Source: Candidatus Heimdallarchaeota archaeon
GTDB taxonomy: Archaea; Asgardarchaeota; Heimdallarchaeia; Hodarchaeales; Hodarchaeaceae
Length of the DNA stretch: 12,040 bases
NCBI GenBank assembly: GCA_019057635.1
Contig: DXJL01000146.1
Coordinates: forward strand, 1 to 12,040
Reading direction: 5' to 3'
Numbering within the stretch: position 1 is the first letter of the stretch; each line of letters opens with the position of its first letter. Shown in pieces: positions 3,242 through 12,040 of this stretch. A program made the position numbers and the translations under genes. The notes under the pieces were generated by a model that was not told the DNA's origin, did no database searches, and was given only the letters and a program-made list of their open reading frames with translations.

Positions 3242-5032
3242 CTAGATTCCTAATTCTCTTATTTTTTCAGATATGGGCACACCATTGGAATCCCATCCAC
3301 GGAGGGAATAATATTCACTTTTTGTGTCTTCAAATTCGCTTTGTTTGATAACTTGGCCTTTAGGATCTCCTCTAGGAGCAGGTTCGTCCGAGAATCGTTG
3401 AGGAAGTACGTCATCTTTCGCTGAAATCCCTTCACGTACATTAAACATACGAGTAAGATTCCAGATTCGTTCTCCAGTTAATAAATAGCTTTTTTCTGTA
3501 TAATCCAAGCCTGTAGCCGCATTCAACATCTCAACCATTTCGGGGACATCAAAGGGTAGAAAATCACATACTACGAGCGAATTACAGGCCGCTCTCTCGT
3601 CCTGCGAAGTTTTAACAAACTGAGGAACTCCTTCAAATGAGAACCGCGTCAATCGTCCATCCAATTCTGCACCAGGAGTCCAACATCTTTGATGACACCC
3701 ACCTCTATCTGAAGTAGCATATGCTAAAGCCATTCCAAAAGATCCACGAGGTTCAACACCGGCTAATTCTAGTCCTTTTACTTGAATCGCGTACGAACTA
3801 CTGTCATGGCCTAATTTTTTGGCGGCAGATAATGATCCTTGGGCAAAAAAGTCACCAATTCCTTTTCTAAAAGCTATCAGTCGAAGCATTGCATGGACAG
3901 CATCATCATTTCCAAATTCAAGGGTATTAATTTCATTTTGACAGAGCAGTCCTTTTTCTGTGGCCTCCATTGCAAAAGCTATGGTACCACCTGCAGTGAT
4001 CGTATCAAAGCCTAGATCGTCACAGATCTCATTTGCCTTTGCAATAGCTCCCAGATCATTCAGACCACAACTTGCTCCAAGAAGAGCAGTGGTTTCGTAT
4101 TCCGGCCCATCTACTTCGAGTCCAGCGTACTTTCCCTGGTCAAAGCGAGTGGTTTTTCCGCACGCAATACTGCATCGATAACAAGCTGTATGTCCCACCA
4201 CAAATTCGTCACGCATACGCTCTCCTGAAATTTTGTCTGCGTCTTCGAACACTCCTGCTTGAAAATTGTGCGTGGGAAGAAATCCAGCCTCATTCGCCAT
4301 TTTAACCCACATAACGGTACCAATTTCATGTCTGCGTTTTACTCCAGGATTATTGCGGACCTTCTTTGTAAAAGTTCGAGTAAGTTTTTTGAACAGCTCT
4401 GGGTCATTAGCATCTATTTTTTCAGTACCATGGGTAACAATTGCCTTCAGGTTCTTCGAACCCATGACTGCTCCTGCTCCTCCGCGTCCTGCTGTGTGAG
4501 TTCGATCTGTGACAATATTAGCGAAAGTCACCAGATTTTCACCCGCTGGACCAATAGCACACACTTCAACCCCTGGATGTTGCTTCTTAAGTAACGATTC
4601 TGTTTCATATGTCCCTTTTCCCCAGTAATCAGTGGCTGTATGAAGATCTATACCGTCGGACGTAACCTCTAAATATTTTGGTTCTGCAGCTTGGCCTTTA
4701 ATAGTAATGTAATCAAAACCTGCTCGTTTTAGACGGTGACCAAATTTTCCTCCTACATGACTATCTAAGAAGATCCCAGTATGAGGTGATTTAGTAACAA
4801 CAGTCCAACGTCCTGAAGTTTGAACTGAAGTTCCTGTTAACGGCCCAGTCATCAGCAGTAATACATTTTCTGGACTGAGGGGATCAACCTTTGGCGATAG
4901 AGTATCATAGAGGATTTTTGCTCCGAGTCCCTTCCCTCCGATCCATGTCTTACCATATGATTTATCGATTGTTTTCTCCGCGATTTTTTCTGTACTCAAA
5001 TTAACCTCTAGAAATTTGCCCATATAACCCAT
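3242..5032 (-). CDS. aor: Aldehyde:ferredoxin oxidoreductase family (W/Mo-bis-pterin, 4Fe-4S) protein
   Basis: GYMGKFLEVNLS, IGGKGLG, KSPHTG, IGPAGENLV, GRGGAGAVMGSKNLKAI, CYRCSIAC, GPEYET, CDDLGFDTI, DRGGCH, LVVCDF and YYSLRGWD. Confidence 0.95.
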   Translation of the reverse strand: MGYMGKFLEVNLSTEKIAEKTIDKSYGKTWIGGKGLGAKILYDTLSPKVDPLSPENVLLLMTGPLTGTSVQTSGRWTVVTKSPHTGIFLDSHVGGKFGHRLKRAGFDYITIKGQAAEPKYLEVTSDGIDLHTATDYWGKGTYETESLLKKQHPGVEVCAIGPAGENLVTFANIVTDRTHTAGRGGAGAVMGSKNLKAIVTHGTEKIDANDPELFKKLTRTFTKKVRNNPGVKRRHEIGTVMWVKMANEAGFLPTHNFQAGVFEDADKISGERMRDEFVVGHTACYRCSIACGKTTRFDQGKYAGLEVDGPEYETTALLGASCGLNDLGAIAKANEICDDLGFDTITAGGTIAFAMEATEKGLLCQNEINTLEFGNDDAVHAMLRLIAFRKGIGDFFAQGSLSAAKKLGHDSSSYAIQVKGLELAGVEPRGSFGMALAYATSDRGGCHQRCWTPGAELDGRLTRFSFEGVPQFVKTSQDERAACNSLVVCDFLPFDVPEMVEMLNAATGLDYTEKSYLLTGERIWNLTRMFNVREGISAKDDVLPQRFSDEPAPRGDPKGQVIKQSEFEDTKSEYYSLRGWDSNGVPISEKIRELGI

Positions 5033-5056: not shown

Positions 5057-6100
5057 TCAAAGTCGGGTAATTGTTCGATGAATGTCCAGAATATCGGTTA
5101 GGAGGGCATATCCCGTGGCTGCACGACCCGCACCAGGACCTATAATGGTGACTTCCCCTAGATGTTTGGTTGTATAGGTCAAAGCGTTAATCGGACCACT
5201 CACAGCTGCAAGAGGGTGTTCCAACGGTAATTTCTCTGGTTTTACAGCAGCTTTTACAGATCCATCTGACTGGATTTCTGCACTGGCGATTAATTTCCAT
5301 CGATTTCCTTCCTGTTTAGCTGTTTCGATATCTTGAGGAGTGATTTTAGTAATTCCTTGGCAAGAAACCTCATCTTTTGTCAAATTCGCATTCATAACTA
5401 CATTTGCTAGAATGACAATTTTCCCTAAGGCATCAAATCCCTCTACATCGGCGGTTGGATCAGCTTCTGCATATCCTAATTCCTGTGCTTGCTTCAAGGC
5501 GCTAGTATAATCAAGACCCTTTTCCATTTCAGTAAGAATATAATTTGTAGTCCCATTTACGATTCCAGCTACCTTTGATATCTGTACTCCAGCCAAATTA
5601 TTAAGCCCCAAATTAATAGCGGGCGTTCCACTCAAAACAGTGCCTTCAAAGCGTACTTGAACACCATTATTCTCGGCCATAGCAAGCAATTCACGTACGG
5701 CGAGAGCAATTGGGCCTTTATTTGTCATAACAATGTGTTTGTAACATTTAATTGCTGATTTCACGTGAGAAATAGCTGGTTCACCTGTTTTGATATCTGT
5801 CCATGATACCTCGACAATCAGGTTTGCATTTGTTTCTGTTATCGTTTTCTGACTATCCCAGCCCTTTATTCCTTCAGGATAGTCGTTAATCTTTCCTGTT
5901 GCTTTCACAATATCTAAGATCTTCTGAAGATGAAGACCATTTTCATCATAAACTGACCCTTTCATCATATCAGAAATGGCCACGACTTGAAAATTAAATC
6001 CATAGCGTTCTGAAAGCTCTTCTTTTTGTTCTACTAAGATTTCAGCGAGTCCTTGACCGACTACACCAAATCCAATGAATGCTATTCTTGTTAAACTCAT
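5057..6100 (-). CDS. hom: Homoserine dehydrogenase (short form, no ACT domain)
   Basis: Rossmann GFGVVG, TNKGP, FEGTVLSGTP, GIVNGTTNYIL, AQELGYAEADPTADVEGFDALGK and GPGAG. 347 aa with no C-terminal ACT domain. Confidence 0.95.
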   Translation of the reverse strand: MSLTRIAFIGFGVVGQGLAEILVEQKEELSERYGFNFQVVAISDMMKGSVYDENGLHLQKILDIVKATGKINDYPEGIKGWDSQKTITETNANLIVEVSWTDIKTGEPAISHVKSAIKCYKHIVMTNKGPIALAVRELLAMAENNGVQVRFEGTVLSGTPAINLGLNNLAGVQISKVAGIVNGTTNYILTEMEKGLDYTSALKQAQELGYAEADPTADVEGFDALGKIVILANVVMNANLTKDEVSCQGITKITPQDIETAKQEGNRWKLIASAEIQSDGSVKAAVKPEKLPLEHPLAAVSGPINALTYTTKHLGEVTIIGPGAGRAATGYALLTDILDIHRTITRL

Positions 6101-6146: not shown

Positions 6147-7310
6147 TTATACCAAAGCTTCCTTAATCTGAGAAATTGCCTGTTGAATAGTGGTAACATC
6201 AGTAGCATAGGAAAACCGAAGATATCCCTCACCATTAGCACCAAATATTGTACCAGGTAAACAAGCCACTCCAGAATTATTGAGAAGAAAATCTGCTAAC
6301 TCCTTGGAAGACATTCCAGTTTTCCTGATGTTGGGAAAGGCATAGAAAGCCCCCTGAGGTGTTAAACAGGAAAATCCAGGAATTTTATTCAATCCTTTAA
6401 CGATGGCATCACGTCGTTTCCGAAAAGCTTGCATATTAGCATGCAAATCGGTTTGTGGCCCCGTTAAGGCTGAAATTCCCGCTTTTTGGATGAAAGATGT
6501 TACACATGAAACTGTTGTAGAGATTAACAAGCCCATTCGATCCATGATTCTTTCAGGAGCAATTGCATACCCCAATCTCCAACCTGTCATATTATAAGCT
6601 TTGGAAAACCCATCCAGAATTATCGTTCTTTCTTTTGTCTGATCTCGAATACTTGGAGAATAGAACTTCTGGTCATAAGTCATTTTTGAGTAGATCTCAT
6701 CAGTCAACAGATAAAAATCATGTTCCTCAGCTAATTCAGCAACCCGATTGATTTCATCTTGCTCCATAACTGATCCAGTCGGATTCATCGGAGAGTTGAT
6801 TATTACTACTTTTGTATTTTTAGTTATAGTGGATTCTATATCATCGGGATCTAATCGAAACTTGTTCTCTTCCTTCAATGGTATAGGTTTCTTTTTACAA
6901 CCCAGATAATTAAGAACAGCACCATAGGTAGGAAAACTGGGATCAGAATAGATTACTTCATCTGTATGATGAGAGACTATTGCTCGGAGTGTGAAGTAGA
7001 TTCCGGGATTTGCGCCTGGGGTGACCAATATTTGTTCTACCGTTGGCCTAAAACCCCGAGTGGATTCTATTTCATTCTGAATCGCCTGGCGAAGCTCAAG
7101 AACACCTGCTGCTGCTACATACCCAGTGAAATTATCATCTAAAGCTTGTTTAGCTGCCTCTTTTACATGGGTGGGAGTGGGAAAATCTGGTTGACCTATT
7201 TCGAAGTGAAGAATAGTTTTACCAGCTCGTTCCAAGGCTTTGGCTTTTGATAGTACTTCGAAAATACCCGCACCTGTCCTAAGACTCTCAAAATCCAGTT
7301 CTTCATTCAT
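6147..7310 (-). CDS. PLP-dependent class I/II aminotransferase (aspartate aminotransferase-like)
   Basis: IGQPDFPTP, NSPMNPTG, DEIY, GFSKAYNMTGWRLG (PLP lysine), PQGAFYAF and GYLRFSYA. Confidence 0.93.
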   Translation of the reverse strand: MNEELDFESLRTGAGIFEVLSKAKALERAGKTILHFEIGQPDFPTPTHVKEAAKQALDDNFTGYVAAAGVLELRQAIQNEIESTRGFRPTVEQILVTPGANPGIYFTLRAIVSHHTDEVIYSDPSFPTYGAVLNYLGCKKKPIPLKEENKFRLDPDDIESTITKNTKVVIINSPMNPTGSVMEQDEINRVAELAEEHDFYLLTDEIYSKMTYDQKFYSPSIRDQTKERTIILDGFSKAYNMTGWRLGYAIAPERIMDRMGLLISTTVSCVTSFIQKAGISALTGPQTDLHANMQAFRKRRDAIVKGLNKIPGFSCLTPQGAFYAFPNIRKTGMSSKELADFLLNNSGVACLPGTIFGANGEGYLRFSYATDVTTIQQAISQIKEALV

Positions 7311-7336: not shown

Positions 7337-8617
7337 TTACCGATGGTGAAGATGACGCGCAGCAATGAAACTCAAACCTTTTTCCGTCAATGCATATGCC
7401 GTTGAATTGATAGCATCCATACGATCGAAATAATTTTGTTTCATGTAATCCCAGTGGCCAGCTTCTATGATTTCCGATTTATCACGAAAATAATCGAGGA
7501 TGTCAGTAGGATAATCCCGGGTTGGTTCCACATCTACGTTTCCTCCCTCATGCTTCGCACTAATGTTCTTCACATTTGGTGCAAGTTCTACTAACTCTGC
7601 CCGTCGATCGTAAGGTTGTCGTACAATGCTTTTCCAAGTTTCGGTTATATGATGTTCTAAGCGTACGACATCTTCAAAACCGAAATTATTCCTGATATAT
7701 GCACTCAATTCCAGTGTTTGGTTATTTACTGAGTTAGAAAGATTAAACCCAATTAAAGGACTTGATCCATCATCTCGTGCAAATAGTTTAGCCGCTAATA
7801 ACGTCCAGAAACAGGAAAAAGGGTTGTCATTACCAACAAAAACAGAAATCTTGAACTCATTATTGATCCCCAATTTATGTATGAAATAGCCAAGCAAAAT
7901 TGTTCCCAGATTAATGTTTAAAACTTGCTGGACTCCGTACGTGGTATAGTAATAGAGGTATTCATCGATCCATTTCATAGCAAAATCATTTGGTTGGCCA
8001 ACTCCTCCGAAATATCCCGTTATAGTCGCAGGGCCTCCTAGATGCACATTCACAGGGGCGCCATCTGGTCCTGGAGCAGTTCCTTTCGTATCCAACGTTT
8101 CAACAATAGAAGCGCCAATAATTTTCGTTGCGGCAGACATTGCTAAAAGATCCCCATCATCCTCCTGTTCTTTCATTTTCCGTACACGGATAATTCTGCC
8201 AGGAAGTAAGGTTTCCCTTCCAAGCGCTTGATTGGCTCCTTCCATGAAAAATGGAAAGTACTGACATGCCGATAGTTCGAGGGTGACAGCAAATTCGTCG
8301 TTAAAGGAAATATCTGGTAATCGACCCCCTAAAACTCGTCTACGATATTCTGACACACTTATAAAAGCTTCATTATCACGTTTGTCAATTAACCAATCCA
8401 GATCTTTCACGTAATCAGGTTGTTTGTTTTGAAGACGAGTCATGAGATTATCTAACTGACCAGCTTCATCCGCTTTCTTATTTATCTCATCCACTCCTCC
8501 ATATTTGTCTATTACTTGTAAAAGATCATTTATGAGTGGATTATCAGGATTCAGTAAAAAATCATTAATTTCTTTAAGATTCTTATCAGGAATCTGTAGT
8601 TTATGACGAAGATCCAT
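7337..8617 (-). CDS. Uncharacterised soluble protein (~426 aa), probable (beta/alpha)8 barrel enzyme; first gene of the aminotransferase-hom-aor operon
   Basis: Long ORF. Start moved from GTG 8662 to ATG 8617 (MDLRHKL), which has GTGAGG just upstream. Helical N-terminus, then alternating strand/helix pattern and a Gly-rich loop. No family motif recognised. Confidence 0.8.
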   Translation of the reverse strand: MDLRHKLQIPDKNLKEINDFLLNPDNPLINDLLQVIDKYGGVDEINKKADEAGQLDNLMTRLQNKQPDYVKDLDWLIDKRDNEAFISVSEYRRRVLGGRLPDISFNDEFAVTLELSACQYFPFFMEGANQALGRETLLPGRIIRVRKMKEQEDDGDLLAMSAATKIIGASIVETLDTKGTAPGPDGAPVNVHLGGPATITGYFGGVGQPNDFAMKWIDEYLYYYTTYGVQQVLNINLGTILLGYFIHKLGINNEFKISVFVGNDNPFSCFWTLLAAKLFARDDGSSPLIGFNLSNSVNNQTLELSAYIRNNFGFEDVVRLEHHITETWKSIVRQPYDRRAELVELAPNVKNISAKHEGGNVDVEPTRDYPTDILDYFRDKSEIIEAGHWDYMKQNYFDRMDAINSTAYALTEKGLSFIAARHLHHR

Positions 8618-8677
8618 AGGCCTCACATTTTCAGCAAAAAAATGAACGAATTCAGTTTGCACAACTCCGTATCTTAC

Positions 8678-8701
8678 GCCTATTTATTTATTATTATAGG
8701 C
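8678..8701. promoter_or_regulatory. Inverted repeat in the divergent promoter region between the operon and the Lrp-RAM gene
   Basis: GCCTAT-TTATTTATTATT-ATAGGC: 6-bp arms around a 12-nt all-A/T spacer. The minus strand reads TATAATAA at 8698-8691. Confidence 0.4.
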
Positions 8702-8823
8702 AGGAAAAAAAAGAGGCACACAAACATTTTTTAATCCCTTAGTGAGACAAATGGGTTTGTAGTCAAAATAGACAAAAGAAAGATATTTTCTTGTGTGACA
8801 CAAAAATCAAGAGTGGATATATC

Positions 8824-9313: not shown

Positions 9314-10777
9314 ATGAGTGTCTCAAATTATAAAAAACCCGATATTAAAACTAATTTTTCAAGTACGCCCACGTGGCTTTATTTGATTGTTGTAGTTGCC
9401 CTCTATGTTTTCGGGGCGTATGCATTTTACGATTTTATTGTTAAGCCTGAAAATGCTAGTATATTAGCTGAAATGTCTGAAGCATTGAAAGTTTTAGTCC
9501 CTATTTCTTTAGACTTTCTACCGCTCTTAATCGCGTTTATCTTAACGTTTCTAGTCGTAACTGTCATTCTAGCATTTGTAATTTTATGGATCATGAGTAA
9601 AGTTGCTAAACAGGTCACAATATTTGTTTCAGTTCTCTTTCCCGTACTGATGATGGTAGTAGGTGTTCTTATGATTGGAGGAGGAATAATAATGCCTGGG
9701 GATGAACAATTAGGCGCTTCGATGATGGGAATGTTTATTGCTGGCTTTGGATTTCTACTTTTAGCATTTGTCGTCTGGAAGTTTCGAGTGATTGAACGCA
9801 GTGGAAAATTTGTTGAATTTTCGGCTCAACTTGTACTCGATGAAAAAGCGGTCTTAGCTATGCCCTTATTACTGGGAATATATTCCATAATAACGGGGTT
9901 TTTCATGCTTTTTGGCTTTCTCAAAATCTACTCTCTCTTTGAGGTTACTAATGCTTTAGGTGAAACGGAATTAAGTTATCCTGGTCTAATAATGGCTATT
10001 ATCTTTGAATATTTCTATTTAATCGTGTACCTAGGTGTATATTACAGCCTATCTGCTGGAGTCATCTCTTATGCCAGTGATTGGTATAGAGGATTAGATC
10101 CTGATTTGGGATCTGCTATGAAAGATGTTCGTCAAGTATTTCCGATCATTCTCAAATTTGCTTTTGCGATGGCGACGGTAAAAATAATTATGCAGATTTT
10201 TACAGGTGCTGCTCGTGGTCAAACAACACGTACTGGTGGTAGAAATGCTGGTGCAGCAATTGGTGGTTTAATATTCGCTGCTATTGCAAGTCTCCTGATC
10301 TCCATTATTGGTGCAATCTGGATGTTTTTGAACTATTTTACCTTGGTGAGTATCGTGCAGAATAAGAAAGGCCTAGGAGATTCGATCAAAGATTCGGCCA
10401 AAACTACCTGGGGTGCACTAGTCGATGTCCTCGTTGGTGAGACAGGTTTTGGATTGACGACATTTATCTTTGCTGTTGTAAATTCATTGCTTTGGATCGG
10501 AATAGGATTCAGTCTAGGATTTGCTGTAACTCAAGAATTAACGTATGGAATTGTATTTGCGGTAATATTCGTTTTCCTTGGAACACTTCCCTACAATGTA
10601 GTTACTATGCCTATGAAAGTGGCTTTCCGCACCTTTATTTACTCTTATGCCAAAGATTCGGTTGAAGGGTTTAAAAAACCAAGCAGATTACCAGCAGAAT
10701 TACGAAATGAGTTTAAAACACTTTCTCGTAAAGATGTCAAAAAGCGCGGAATGCGTGATCCTTCTGAATATTTCTAA
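9314..10777 (+). CDS. Polytopic membrane protein (~10 TM), CTL/SLC44 choline-transporter-like / DUF6159-like
   Basis: About 10 hydrophobic segments. Segments FRVIERSGKFVEFSAQLVLDEKAVLAMP, AGVISYASDWY and FLNYFTLVSIVQNKKGLGDSIKDSAKTTWG..GFG resemble by eye conserved blocks of the CTL/Pns1 and DUF6159 families. The CDS is solid; the family call is tentative. Confidence 0.6.
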   Translation: MSVSNYKKPDIKTNFSSTPTWLYLIVVVALYVFGAYAFYDFIVKPENASILAEMSEALKVLVPISLDFLPLLIAFILTFLVVTVILAFVILWIMSKVAKQVTIFVSVLFPVLMMVVGVLMIGGGIIMPGDEQLGASMMGMFIAGFGFLLLAFVVWKFRVIERSGKFVEFSAQLVLDEKAVLAMPLLLGIYSIITGFFMLFGFLKIYSLFEVTNALGETELSYPGLIMAIIFEYFYLIVYLGVYYSLSAGVISYASDWYRGLDPDLGSAMKDVRQVFPIILKFAFAMATVKIIMQIFTGAARGQTTRTGGRNAGAAIGGLIFAAIASLLISIIGAIWMFLNYFTLVSIVQNKKGLGDSIKDSAKTTWGALVDVLVGETGFGLTTFIFAVVNSLLWIGIGFSLGFAVTQELTYGIVFAVIFVFLGTLPYNVVTMPMKVAFRTFIYSYAKDSVEGFKKPSRLPAELRNEFKTLSRKDVKKRGMRDPSEYF

Positions 10778-11418: not shown

Positions 11419-11530
11419 TTTTTTTCCTCCAATGTTGATGAGTGTTACGTTTTTAATTGAAAACCTTTTCATATTTATGAATTATCTTCGTTCTGAAATG
11501 TGATTCAAAGAGAAAAACTTGGTTATCAAT

Positions 11531-12040
11531 ATGAAAATCCTTCTAATAGAACCACCCAAAAAATTCTGGTTTGTTATGGGAGAATACCTACCCCCCCCTT
11601 ACAATCTACTCTTACTCGCAGCTGTAATAGAACAGCAATTACCAGATTCTACTGTAAAAGTAATCGACTCACAAGCGGAGAATCTCGACTGGTTTGGATT
11701 AGAAGAAGTAATAAAACGGGAAAAACCGGATATAGTGGGTTCTGGGAGTCATGCGACGTGTAATGTTTATAAAACGGTACGAACTCTTGATTTAGCCAAG
11801 CGAATCGATCCAGAGATCGTCACCATTGCGGGAGGCGCCCATTTCACCATGATGGATGAAATTTCTCTCAAGGAATACCCAAATATCGATCTGATCGTGC
11901 GATATGAAGGAGAAAAAGCTTTAATTGCAGTATTAACTCATGTACAGCAACAAGGATTTGCAAAAGAAGGGTTAAAATCCATCAAGGGAATATCGTTTGT
12001 TCATAATGAAAAATTTTATCGAACTGAAGATCATCCTCCG
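11531..12040 (+). CDS. Cobalamin-binding domain protein, most likely a B12-binding radical SAM enzyme (N-terminal part, runs off the window)
   Basis: My translation: MKILLIEPPKKFWFVMGEYLPPPYNLLLLAAVIEQ...VKVIDSQAE...KPDIVG...IVTIAGGAHFT...IDLIVRYEGE...IKGISF. This matches the N-terminal B12-binding domain of BchE-like radical SAM proteins. No stop before 12040. The CxxxCxxC motif is not within the window. Confidence 0.88.
   Translation, partial: MKILLIEPPKKFWFVMGEYLPPPYNLLLLAAVIEQQLPDSTVKVIDSQAENLDWFGLEEVIKREKPDIVGSGSHATCNVYKTVRTLDLAKRIDPEIVTIAGGAHFTMMDEISLKEYPNIDLIVRYEGEKALIAVLTHVQQQGFAKEGLKSIKGISFVHNEKFYRTEDHPP

Follow-up and report, generated by a model that had tools for sequence, protein, structure and literature searches.

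Several described systems share features with the gene cluster examined here. First, hydratases or dehydratases are coupled to aldolases in the modules MhpD/MhpE, HpaH/HpaI and YagF/YagE, each of which brings together a maker of a 4-hydroxy-2-oxo acid, a pyruvate aldolase (often of the dihydrodipicolinate synthase, DHDPS, family) and a handler of the aldehyde. Second, the engineered 'homoserine cycle' uses a 4-hydroxy-2-oxobutanoate (HOB) aldolase and an HOB aminotransferase to convert pyruvate and formaldehyde to HOB and then to homoserine. Third, the class II aldolases (fructose-bisphosphate (FBP) and tagatose-bisphosphate aldolases and YdjI; PF01116) and the DAHP synthases are (βα)8 barrels whose strands end in acidic and histidine residues, the arrangement of metal-dependent enolate chemistry. 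Here we describe X, a working name for a 426-aa gene at 7337-8617 on the minus strand of a 12,040-nt stretch of DNA (the window, by which the whole stretch is meant) from Candidatus Heimdallarchaeota archaeon. X is most likely a real enzyme of an undescribed (βα)8-barrel family, with its catalysis predicted, and it is followed by genes for an aminotransferase, a homoserine dehydrogenase (HSD) and an aldehyde:ferredoxin oxidoreductase (AOR). Using the gene neighbourhoods of its relatives, we tentatively propose, with somewhat less than even confidence, that X forms or consumes HOB as a lyase or hydro-lyase assisted by a metal (or by Lys256).

Compared with the hydratase/dehydratase-aldolase modules, the X operons have a similar composition, with Fae or AOR as the aldehyde handler, but the hydratases and dehydratases of those modules belong to the FAH or IlvD/Edd families and not to an X-type TIM barrel, and the aldehyde in the X systems is apparently a carrier-bound one-carbon (C1) unit. 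The homoserine cycle performs the conversion that we propose, yet it was assembled from promiscuous E. coli enzymes and has no equivalent of X. Full-text literature searches found no natural pathway of this kind, and nothing on the X family came up in those devoted to the operon, to PanB paralogues or to HOB together with either PanB or methanethiol. Unlike the class II aldolases and DAHP synthases, X has an extra 100-residue helical N-domain and a conserved loop of 35 residues, which probably serves as a lid.

The fold of X was predicted with high confidence. The AlphaFold2 model (mean predicted local distance difference test score (pLDDT) 90.2, predicted template modelling score 0.89, from a 27-sequence alignment) contains seven helices in residues 3-102, followed by eight strand-helix units that form a parallel (βα)8 TIM barrel. 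A preliminary description of the locus, made from the sequence alone, had proposed a TIM barrel behind a helical N-terminal region and would have given it up if no barrel were predicted; the barrel is present in the model, and the top fold matches are all TIM barrels. DSSP assigns strands to residues 111-115, 141-144, 170-174, 231-234, 254-257, 288-292, 319-325 and 352-356, with a helix after each, and these strands correspond individually to the eight segments picked out in that description, namely VTLELS (residues 111-116), RIIRVR (141-146), SIVETL (170-175), QVLNIN (231-236), FKISVF (255-260), IGFNLS (289-294), VRLEHH (318-323) and ISAKHE (352-357).

The sequence and the model were used to search for a known family. 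X has no match in Pfam at E up to 10, two unrelated chance matches aside, none in NCBIfam, and none in the PDB by sequence or by profile. The earlier statement that X fits no characterised family therefore stands, and the profile searches gave no confident match to an unrelated characterised family. The ESM Atlas held no useful neighbour for X or for protein P0276, and a first genome scan queried with P0276 found no relative. In fold comparison, the matches that Foldseek ranked highest in the PDB were to class II FBP aldolases, at E 3e-4 to 5e-3, and to DAHP synthases, at E about 1e-3, with low TM-scores (0.27-0.35), and isocitrate lyase was a weak match (E 1.8e-3). The VIA-align Z of X against the class II aldolase and DAHP synthase families (10.4-11.1) was no higher than against hundreds of unrelated barrels, and Foldseek against the PDB, the wide VIA search and a second look with VIA all gave a flat list of barrels with no superfamily standing out. 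X can be placed among the TIM barrels by its fold, but not in a superfamily.

Individual barrel families were also examined. When the X alignment was compared by hhalign with that of the DapA-like/Fae partner described below (DHDPS/NAL, PF00701), the probability was 0.2, and against the PanB-like alignment (PanB / ICL-PEP mutase superfamily, PF02548) it was 0.1. For the BKACE barrels (DUF849, Kce; PF05853) and the peptidase U32 barrels (Mk0906; PF01136), X gave no profile match and fold matches no higher than those of other barrels; no U32 gene was found in its own genome. The U32 hydroxylases such as UbiU/UbiV bind an iron-sulfur cluster through cysteines, whereas the X family has no conserved cysteine, which argues against such a cluster. 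No B12-binding small subunit or domain, as would accompany a B12-dependent mutase such as glutamate mutase E, is encoded near X.

The fold matches bear on another reading, in which X is itself an aldolase of the metal-dependent, class II-like kind, or a condensing enzyme like DAHP synthase, and makes or breaks a second C-C bond, for example on a 4-hydroxy-2-oxo acid or with aspartate semialdehyde or formaldehyde; the aldehyde so released would be oxidised by AOR. These two families do head the Foldseek list, the operon AOR fits an aldehyde product, and the human gut subfamily of X adjoins an IlvD-family dehydratase; dehydratase-aldolase pairs are usual in sugar-acid routes. However, the TM-scores given above are low and the Z values do not exceed the level of unrelated barrels, neither PF01116 nor PF00793 matches X at E up to 10, and X is usually paired with another aldolase, beside which it would be redundant. 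We regard this reading as quite unlikely.

The conserved residues are arranged as in an active site. In 120 unique family members, including the 39%-identical gut subfamily, the invariant positions are E114 and S116 at strand 1, R141 and R146 at strand 2, N190, H192 and N210 in the loop after strand 3, N234 at strand 4, K256 and D264 at strand 5 and its loop, N292 at strand 6, R319, E321 and H323 at strand 7, Q334 and R338 after it, and K355, H356, E357 and G358 at strand 8; D176, S258 and H322 are at least 97% conserved. About a dozen of the invariant residues are located at the C-terminal strand ends, where polar and charged residues had been noted in the single sequence. The motifs EHH and KHEG, singled out earlier for a conservation check, are accounted for by these residues at strands 7 and 8, and the invariant histidines are H192, H323 and H356. 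The Gly/Pro-rich loop after strand 3, which matches the position given in the preliminary description, is the sole poorly modelled part of X (pLDDT 48-55) and its most conserved segment, with a mean column identity of 0.80 compared with 0.52-0.69 elsewhere; besides its Asn and His residues named above, G179, G186, G201, G205, G207 and P209 are invariant. Because low pLDDT coincides with the highest conservation, we read the loop as a probable mobile active-site lid.

A non-catalytic role, in which X binds, scaffolds or regulates the adjoining enzymes, could be considered because X occurs once in fusion with an aldolase-like domain and its reaction lacks an assignment. It appears extremely improbable to us, since the invariant strand-end residues together with an invariant Gly-rich lid are the usual layout of a TIM-barrel active site, and X occurs with several different types of partner.

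The X family is large and tight. A word-indexed search with X gave at least 8000 significant matches, among which the named ones came from metagenome-assembled genomes of Hodarchaeales, Heimdall-, Loki- and Thorarchaeota and were without exception labelled 'hypothetical'. An exhaustive search of 50%-identity representatives gave 516 matches, mostly fragments; the scarcity of full-length divergent members indicates a tight family. X was found in 227 of 400 Asgard genomes, nearly always as one match each (59-97% identity) and patchily across families, and since it is single-copy and intact there, the open reading frame (ORF) does not arise by chance. It is encoded at no fewer than 585 loci of species-representative genomes, and the best 80 bacterial loci, as ranked against a bacterial-type member, belong to Chloroflexota (mostly Anaerolineae), Syntrophaceae/Deltaproteobacteria, Zixibacteria, Armatimonadota and Vulcanimicrobiota. 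A tree built from 132 sequences groups the 50 archaeal rows into a single clade (Shimodaira-Hasegawa-like approximate likelihood ratio test 99) nested among Chloroflexota rows; as the root rests on two very long branches, we claim no direction of transfer. The gut subfamily was seen on 616 metagenome contigs. In a closed genome, the X homologue (G142:C1:934758-936008) carries one in-frame TAA and could be a pseudogene, a sequencing error or a case of recoding.

The gene context in Asgard archaea was analysed at 49 loci chosen non-randomly (the 29 best genome matches after the window and 20 selected for spread, with six genomes counted twice), and two kinds of partner prevail. The first is the aminotransferase, which is encoded downstream of X on the same strand at 21 loci. 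The order X-aminotransferase-HSD-AOR is kept in five of the seven wide loci of families f1 and f4 (L031-L035); of the exceptions, L037 has one reverse-strand gene after the aminotransferase, and L036 lacks HSD and AOR. The second is a fusion of about 495 aa that joins a DapA-like to a Fae domain (PF00701 and PF08714) and lies directly downstream of X at 23 loci. Its Fae domain matches TIGR03126 at 183 bits, and the fusions (L038-L044, L050, L158; for example L040:9302-10789) score as DapA above the cut-off (TIGR00674, 247.7 bits). In three f20 genomes and one f7 genome, DHDPS-family genes of ordinary length are present besides the fusion (286-305 bits in f20 and about 182 in f7, compared with 243-265 for the fusion), so that in the four genomes checked the fusion is an extra copy; a fifth genome, G314 of family f31, has just two long DHDPS-family genes, neither of which adjoins X. 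The fusion consensus contains YNIPxCTG at what we take to be the site of the aspartate-semialdehyde-binding arginine of E. coli DapA.

This partner of X, though not X itself, resembles the archaeal Fae-Hps fusion (NF009833), in which an aldehyde-releasing barrel enzyme is likewise fused to Fae. Its catalytic domain, however, is DHDPS-like and not Hps, and in the genome of the window, which is 91.6% complete, no Fae match was found, nor were FolD or methenyl-tetrahydromethanopterin cyclohydrolase (Mch).

Other Asgard arrangements are rarer. Four f31 loci have a gene for an ECF S component ahead of X and, divergent from X, one for a ThrC-like/PadR fusion. In two f19 genomes, a divergent 348-aa DHDPS-like gene (DHDPS in the PDB, E 6e-7) is directly upstream of X, and the 759-aa protein P0293 is a fusion of a DHDPS-like part with X, the X part being 55% identical to X and the N-terminal part 41-42% identical to the product of the 348-aa gene; as a single record, P0293 is possibly an artefact of assembly or gene calling. 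Among eight further loci, one has the aldolase-Fae fusion, two the aminotransferase and two (the f19 pair just described) the DHDPS-like gene, while three have none of the tested neighbours beside X, two of these carrying an AOR-like gene about 2.6 kb upstream.

The partner of X tracks the presence of a C1 pathway. Using Mch as the marker of the tetrahydromethanopterin (H4MPT) C1 pathway, we found it in none of 21 f1 and none of 31 f4 genomes, families in which X is followed by aminotransferase, HSD and AOR, and in 12 of 12 f7 and 131 of 135 f20 genomes, in which X is followed by the aldolase-Fae fusion. The same holds within f19, where G131 is Mch-positive with aldolase-Fae and G137 is Mch-negative with the aminotransferase, and the Mch-negative genome G010 (f3) also has the aminotransferase context.

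The bacterial context was read by tblastn within 3 kb of X at the 80 loci, 74 of which include at least 900 bp upstream. A PanB-family gene is upstream of X on the same strand at 58 loci, and in all five genomes checked, each with two or three PanB copies, this gene scores lower (328-346 bits) than its counterparts (382-404). Genes for formate-tetrahydrofolate ligase (Fhs) and FolD are divergent from X at 11 loci, and a Glu/Leu/Phe/Val-type dehydrogenase with CBS domains is encoded downstream at nine and upstream at three. Rarer neighbours are CoA-transferase subunits (8 of 80), class I fumarase-like genes (8) and the DapA-like/Fae fusion (2), and Lrp regulators with tyrosine phenol-lyase occur near X at two to four loci. 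A complete TRAP transporter (DctPQM) is directly upstream of X in L064, and a homocysteine-methyltransferase/MTHFR fusion is directly downstream in L060. ORF cluster c9 was rejected as a conserved neighbour: it probably represents an ORF running antisense to the PanB-like gene of high-GC genomes, because it lies at the tblastn position of that gene and matches nothing in Pfam or the PDB. In several Anaerolineae (L079, L084, L086, L090, L096, L109, L123 and others), the second PanB and X together are divergent from Fhs and FolD, and downstream follow genes for CoA-transferase A/B, a methyltransferase, a GH3-like ligase and a GAF-HD signalling protein. At the loci of the gut subfamily, whose nearest neighbours are weighed below, DhaK, DhaL and IclR are encoded 750 bp further on.

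Taken over both domains, the neighbours of X fall into four groups. The first, made up of the PanB paralogue, the DapA-like/Fae fusion and the DHDPS-like protein, adds C1 to C3 of a 2-oxo acid or removes it from there, the second interconverts 2-oxo acids and amino acids (aminotransferase, amino-acid dehydrogenase), the third acts on homoserine or aspartate semialdehyde (HSD, AOR, ThrC-like protein) and the fourth supplies or removes carrier-bound C1 (Fhs, FolD, MTHFR). HOB, which is both the aldol product of pyruvate with formaldehyde and the keto acid that corresponds to homoserine, would be the one uncommon metabolite that links all four. As operons usually cluster around rare intermediates, we placed X on the far side of HOB from its partners. 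The preliminary description had X acting on a C4 amino acid or oxo acid; gene context in many genomes supports this claim and is its whole basis.

With HOB as the shared intermediate, X would carry out an enolate-type elimination or addition at C3-C4 that depends on a metal or on Lys256, a proposal made because of the analogous hydratase/dehydratase-aldolase modules and because acidic, His, Lys and Arg residues abound in the active site. As candidate reactions, X might eliminate or exchange the group at C4 of a 4-substituted 2-oxobutanoate, for example the methionine keto acid, or it might hydrate 2-oxobut-3-enoate or dehydrate a C4 sugar acid. In lineages with C1 carriers, a pyruvate-type aldolase (the DapA-like/Fae fusion, the divergent DHDPS-like protein or the PanB paralogue) would split HOB to pyruvate and carrier-bound C1, or build it from them. 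In lineages without the C1 pathway, including the present genome, HOB would be converted to homoserine by the operon aminotransferase, homoserine to aspartate semialdehyde by HSD, and the semialdehyde to aspartate by AOR with reduction of ferredoxin. Transporters adjoin X in four unrelated contexts (TRAP DctPQM, MFS, ECF S component and Liv-type ABC), and we therefore lean to an imported acid and a catabolic direction. The analysis establishes the fold, the absence of a family match, the conservation and the gene associations; from these we infer HOB, the direction of the pathway and the reaction of X. Among the papers found, those that deal with HOB are reviews of C1 use and engineering studies of it. 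A further step, speculative and in our judgement rather unlikely, would be that X and its aldolase partners form a natural and widespread pathway joining the C1 of methylene-H4MPT or methylene-tetrahydrofolate to C4 amino acids through HOB, the counterpart in nature of the engineered homoserine cycle, with X performing a reaction that has no known enzyme, such as methanethiol release from the methionine keto acid or dehydration of a C4 sugar acid.

Several observations weigh against HOB. First, it was chosen solely as the metabolite common to the neighbours, and pyruvate or oxaloacetate fits many of the same genes. Second, the four invariant arginines and two invariant lysines of X suggest a substrate more anionic than HOB, for example a phosphate ester or a dicarboxylate. 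Third, related genomes are not independent, so the Mch contrast represents a handful of lineages rather than hundreds. Fourth, the operon HSD is the single copy found by tblastn in its own genome, and aspartate kinase (Ask), an Asd-like gene, ThrB and ThrC are encoded outside the operon; the operon could be biosynthetic rather than catabolic. Fifth, the X-linked PanB still scores above the PanB equivalog cut-off (292 bits compared with 207.55), 22 of the 80 bacterial loci have no PanB-like gene and show mixed contexts, and in the gut subfamily (L152, L153, L155) X has LivHM-type permeases and an ABC ATPase on one side and, on the other, a bona fide IlvD (TIGR00110, 638.5 bits, cut-off 618.15).

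The first two of these points suit an X whose substrate is pyruvate or oxaloacetate and which might be a metal-dependent enzyme such as a beta-keto-acid decarboxylase or tautomerase. In the window operon, homoserine would pass through aspartate semialdehyde (HSD), aspartate (AOR) and oxaloacetate (aminotransferase) to pyruvate (X), and at other loci X would feed pyruvate to the adjoining aldolases. This needs no novel substrate in the window, the Arg/Lys cluster would suit a dicarboxylate, and the DapA-like, DHDPS-like and PanB-like partners all take a 2-oxo acid donor, typically pyruvate, which is also formed by the tyrosine phenol-lyase and PatB C-S lyase of some operons; TRAP DctPQM and class I fumarase-like genes adjoin X in some bacteria. 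Pyruvate, however, is central to metabolism, so that tight clustering and fusion with an aldolase fit a rare shared intermediate better, and X shows no similarity to known oxaloacetate decarboxylase barrels, as judged by the low hhalign score against the PanB/ICL member and the weak isocitrate lyase match. We consider a role on pyruvate or oxaloacetate unlikely, though by no means negligible.

The fifth point concerns ketoisovalerate and pantoate metabolism, in which X would process ketopantoate or a homologue made by PanB, or act beside IlvD. Because the partner PanB is above the cut-off and the gut context combines IlvD with a branched-chain ABC transporter, chemistry on ketoisovalerate or ketopantoate has some probability; PanB is also the commonest neighbour of X, a Val/Leu-type dehydrogenase family is among the others, and the ECF S component upstream in f31 is of a type often used for vitamin uptake. 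We hold such a role to be very unlikely all the same, since the X-linked PanB is the second, lower-scoring copy where copies were compared, the only PanB of the present genome adjoins a GHMP-kinase-like gene on a different contig, the normal donor of DHDPS-family aldolases is pyruvate and not a branched 2-oxo acid, and the HSD, AOR and ThrC-like contexts do not fit. A lyase or hydro-lyase acting around HOB is the reading that we retain.

The coordinates of X and its neighbours in the window are listed in Table 1. The plus strand across the gene is crowded with stop codons, which places X on the minus strand. Its ORF extends over 7337..8662 (441 aa counted from GTG), but the start was taken at the ATG at 8617, from which more than 100 homologues of 426-428 aa each align (96% query coverage). 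The three same-strand genes that follow at gaps of 26, 46 and 24 bp place X at the head of a four-gene cluster, in agreement with the preliminary description. In the minus-strand reading, a GAGG-like ribosome-binding site is immediately 5' of the ATG and a TATA-like run occupies 8680-8700, and the upstream spacer may therefore carry the promoter and ribosome-binding elements of X, as judged from its sequence.

Table 1 Features of gene X and its surroundings in the window
Feature	Position	Strand	Basis and remarks
Gene X, most likely an orphan enzyme, 426 aa	7337..8617	-	ORF list and homologue alignment; stop codon 7337-7339
X helical N-domain, residues 1-102	8312-8617	-	AlphaFold2 model
X (βα)8 barrel, residues 103-426	7340-8311	-	AlphaFold2 model
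X Gly/Pro-rich loop after strand 3, residues 176-210	7988..8092	-	Alignment and model
Divergent intergenic region, 173 bp, AT-rich	8618..8790	.	Sequence read directly; GC 0.33 around region
Class I/II aminotransferase	6147..7310	-	PF00155, E 2e-70; 26 bp downstream of X
Homoserine dehydrogenase (HSD)	5057..6100	-	NF004912, 440.5 bits, cut-off 373
Aldehyde:ferredoxin oxidoreductase (AOR family)	3242..5032	-	PF02730 and PF01314; last cluster gene, convergent with cysS
Stand-alone Lrp/AsnC ligand-binding (RAM) domain protein, about 80-90 aa	8791..9063	+	PF01037, E 4.7e-10; divergent from X

The aminotransferase of the operon scores below all NCBIfam equivalog cut-offs. Two simple roles for X were excluded by the gene content of the genome: it is not a missing homoserine kinase, as ThrB (216.6 bits, above the cut-off) is present beside ThrC, and it is not a substitute for aspartate kinase or aspartate semialdehyde dehydrogenase, as Ask and the Asd-like gene are both present. 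A RAM-domain gene is upstream of X on the opposite strand at eight of the 49 Asgard loci; the one in the window encodes no DNA-binding domain, has a 51%-identical second copy on contig C56, and is possibly an amino-acid sensor. AOR-family matches are present on nine further contigs of this 3.2-Mb genome, and the window copy is 25-40% identical to them. In three related genomes (L031-L033), a PatB-family C-S lyase (TIGR04350, 479 bits) follows AOR in the same operon; it is absent from the window, where cysS comes directly after AOR instead. Elsewhere in the window, 9314-10777 (plus strand) encodes a 487-aa multi-pass membrane protein with a match to PF04515 (choline-transporter-like, eukaryote-type; E 6e-5) at 22.8 bits, below the cut-off of 26.9, and the N-terminus encoded at 11519-12040 (plus strand), which runs off the end, resembles by eye the B12-binding domain of a class B radical SAM enzyme.

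In conclusion, members of the X family number in the thousands among Asgard archaea, Chloroflexota and other anaerobes, with 60-80% identity across the two domains, and although the family is so strongly conserved, it has no name, domain model or solved structure. Judging from sequence and context, X probably marks an undescribed metabolic step, and its fixed link to enzymes of C1/2-oxo acid and homoserine/aspartate metabolism suggests that the present picture of anaerobic carbon and amino-acid metabolism lacks a part. The genes labelled 'DapA' and 'PanB' that adjoin X are extra copies in the genomes checked, probably have other jobs and are likely mis-annotated. If the link to HOB is true, a sequence of reactions that the papers found treat only in C1 reviews and engineering studies would already exist in nature, and current metabolic reconstructions of Asgard archaea omit it. 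Should X and the aldolases also form the pathway considered above, sediment-dwelling anaerobes would possess a so far unrecognised way of connecting methionine, homoserine or aspartate with pyruvate plus C1.

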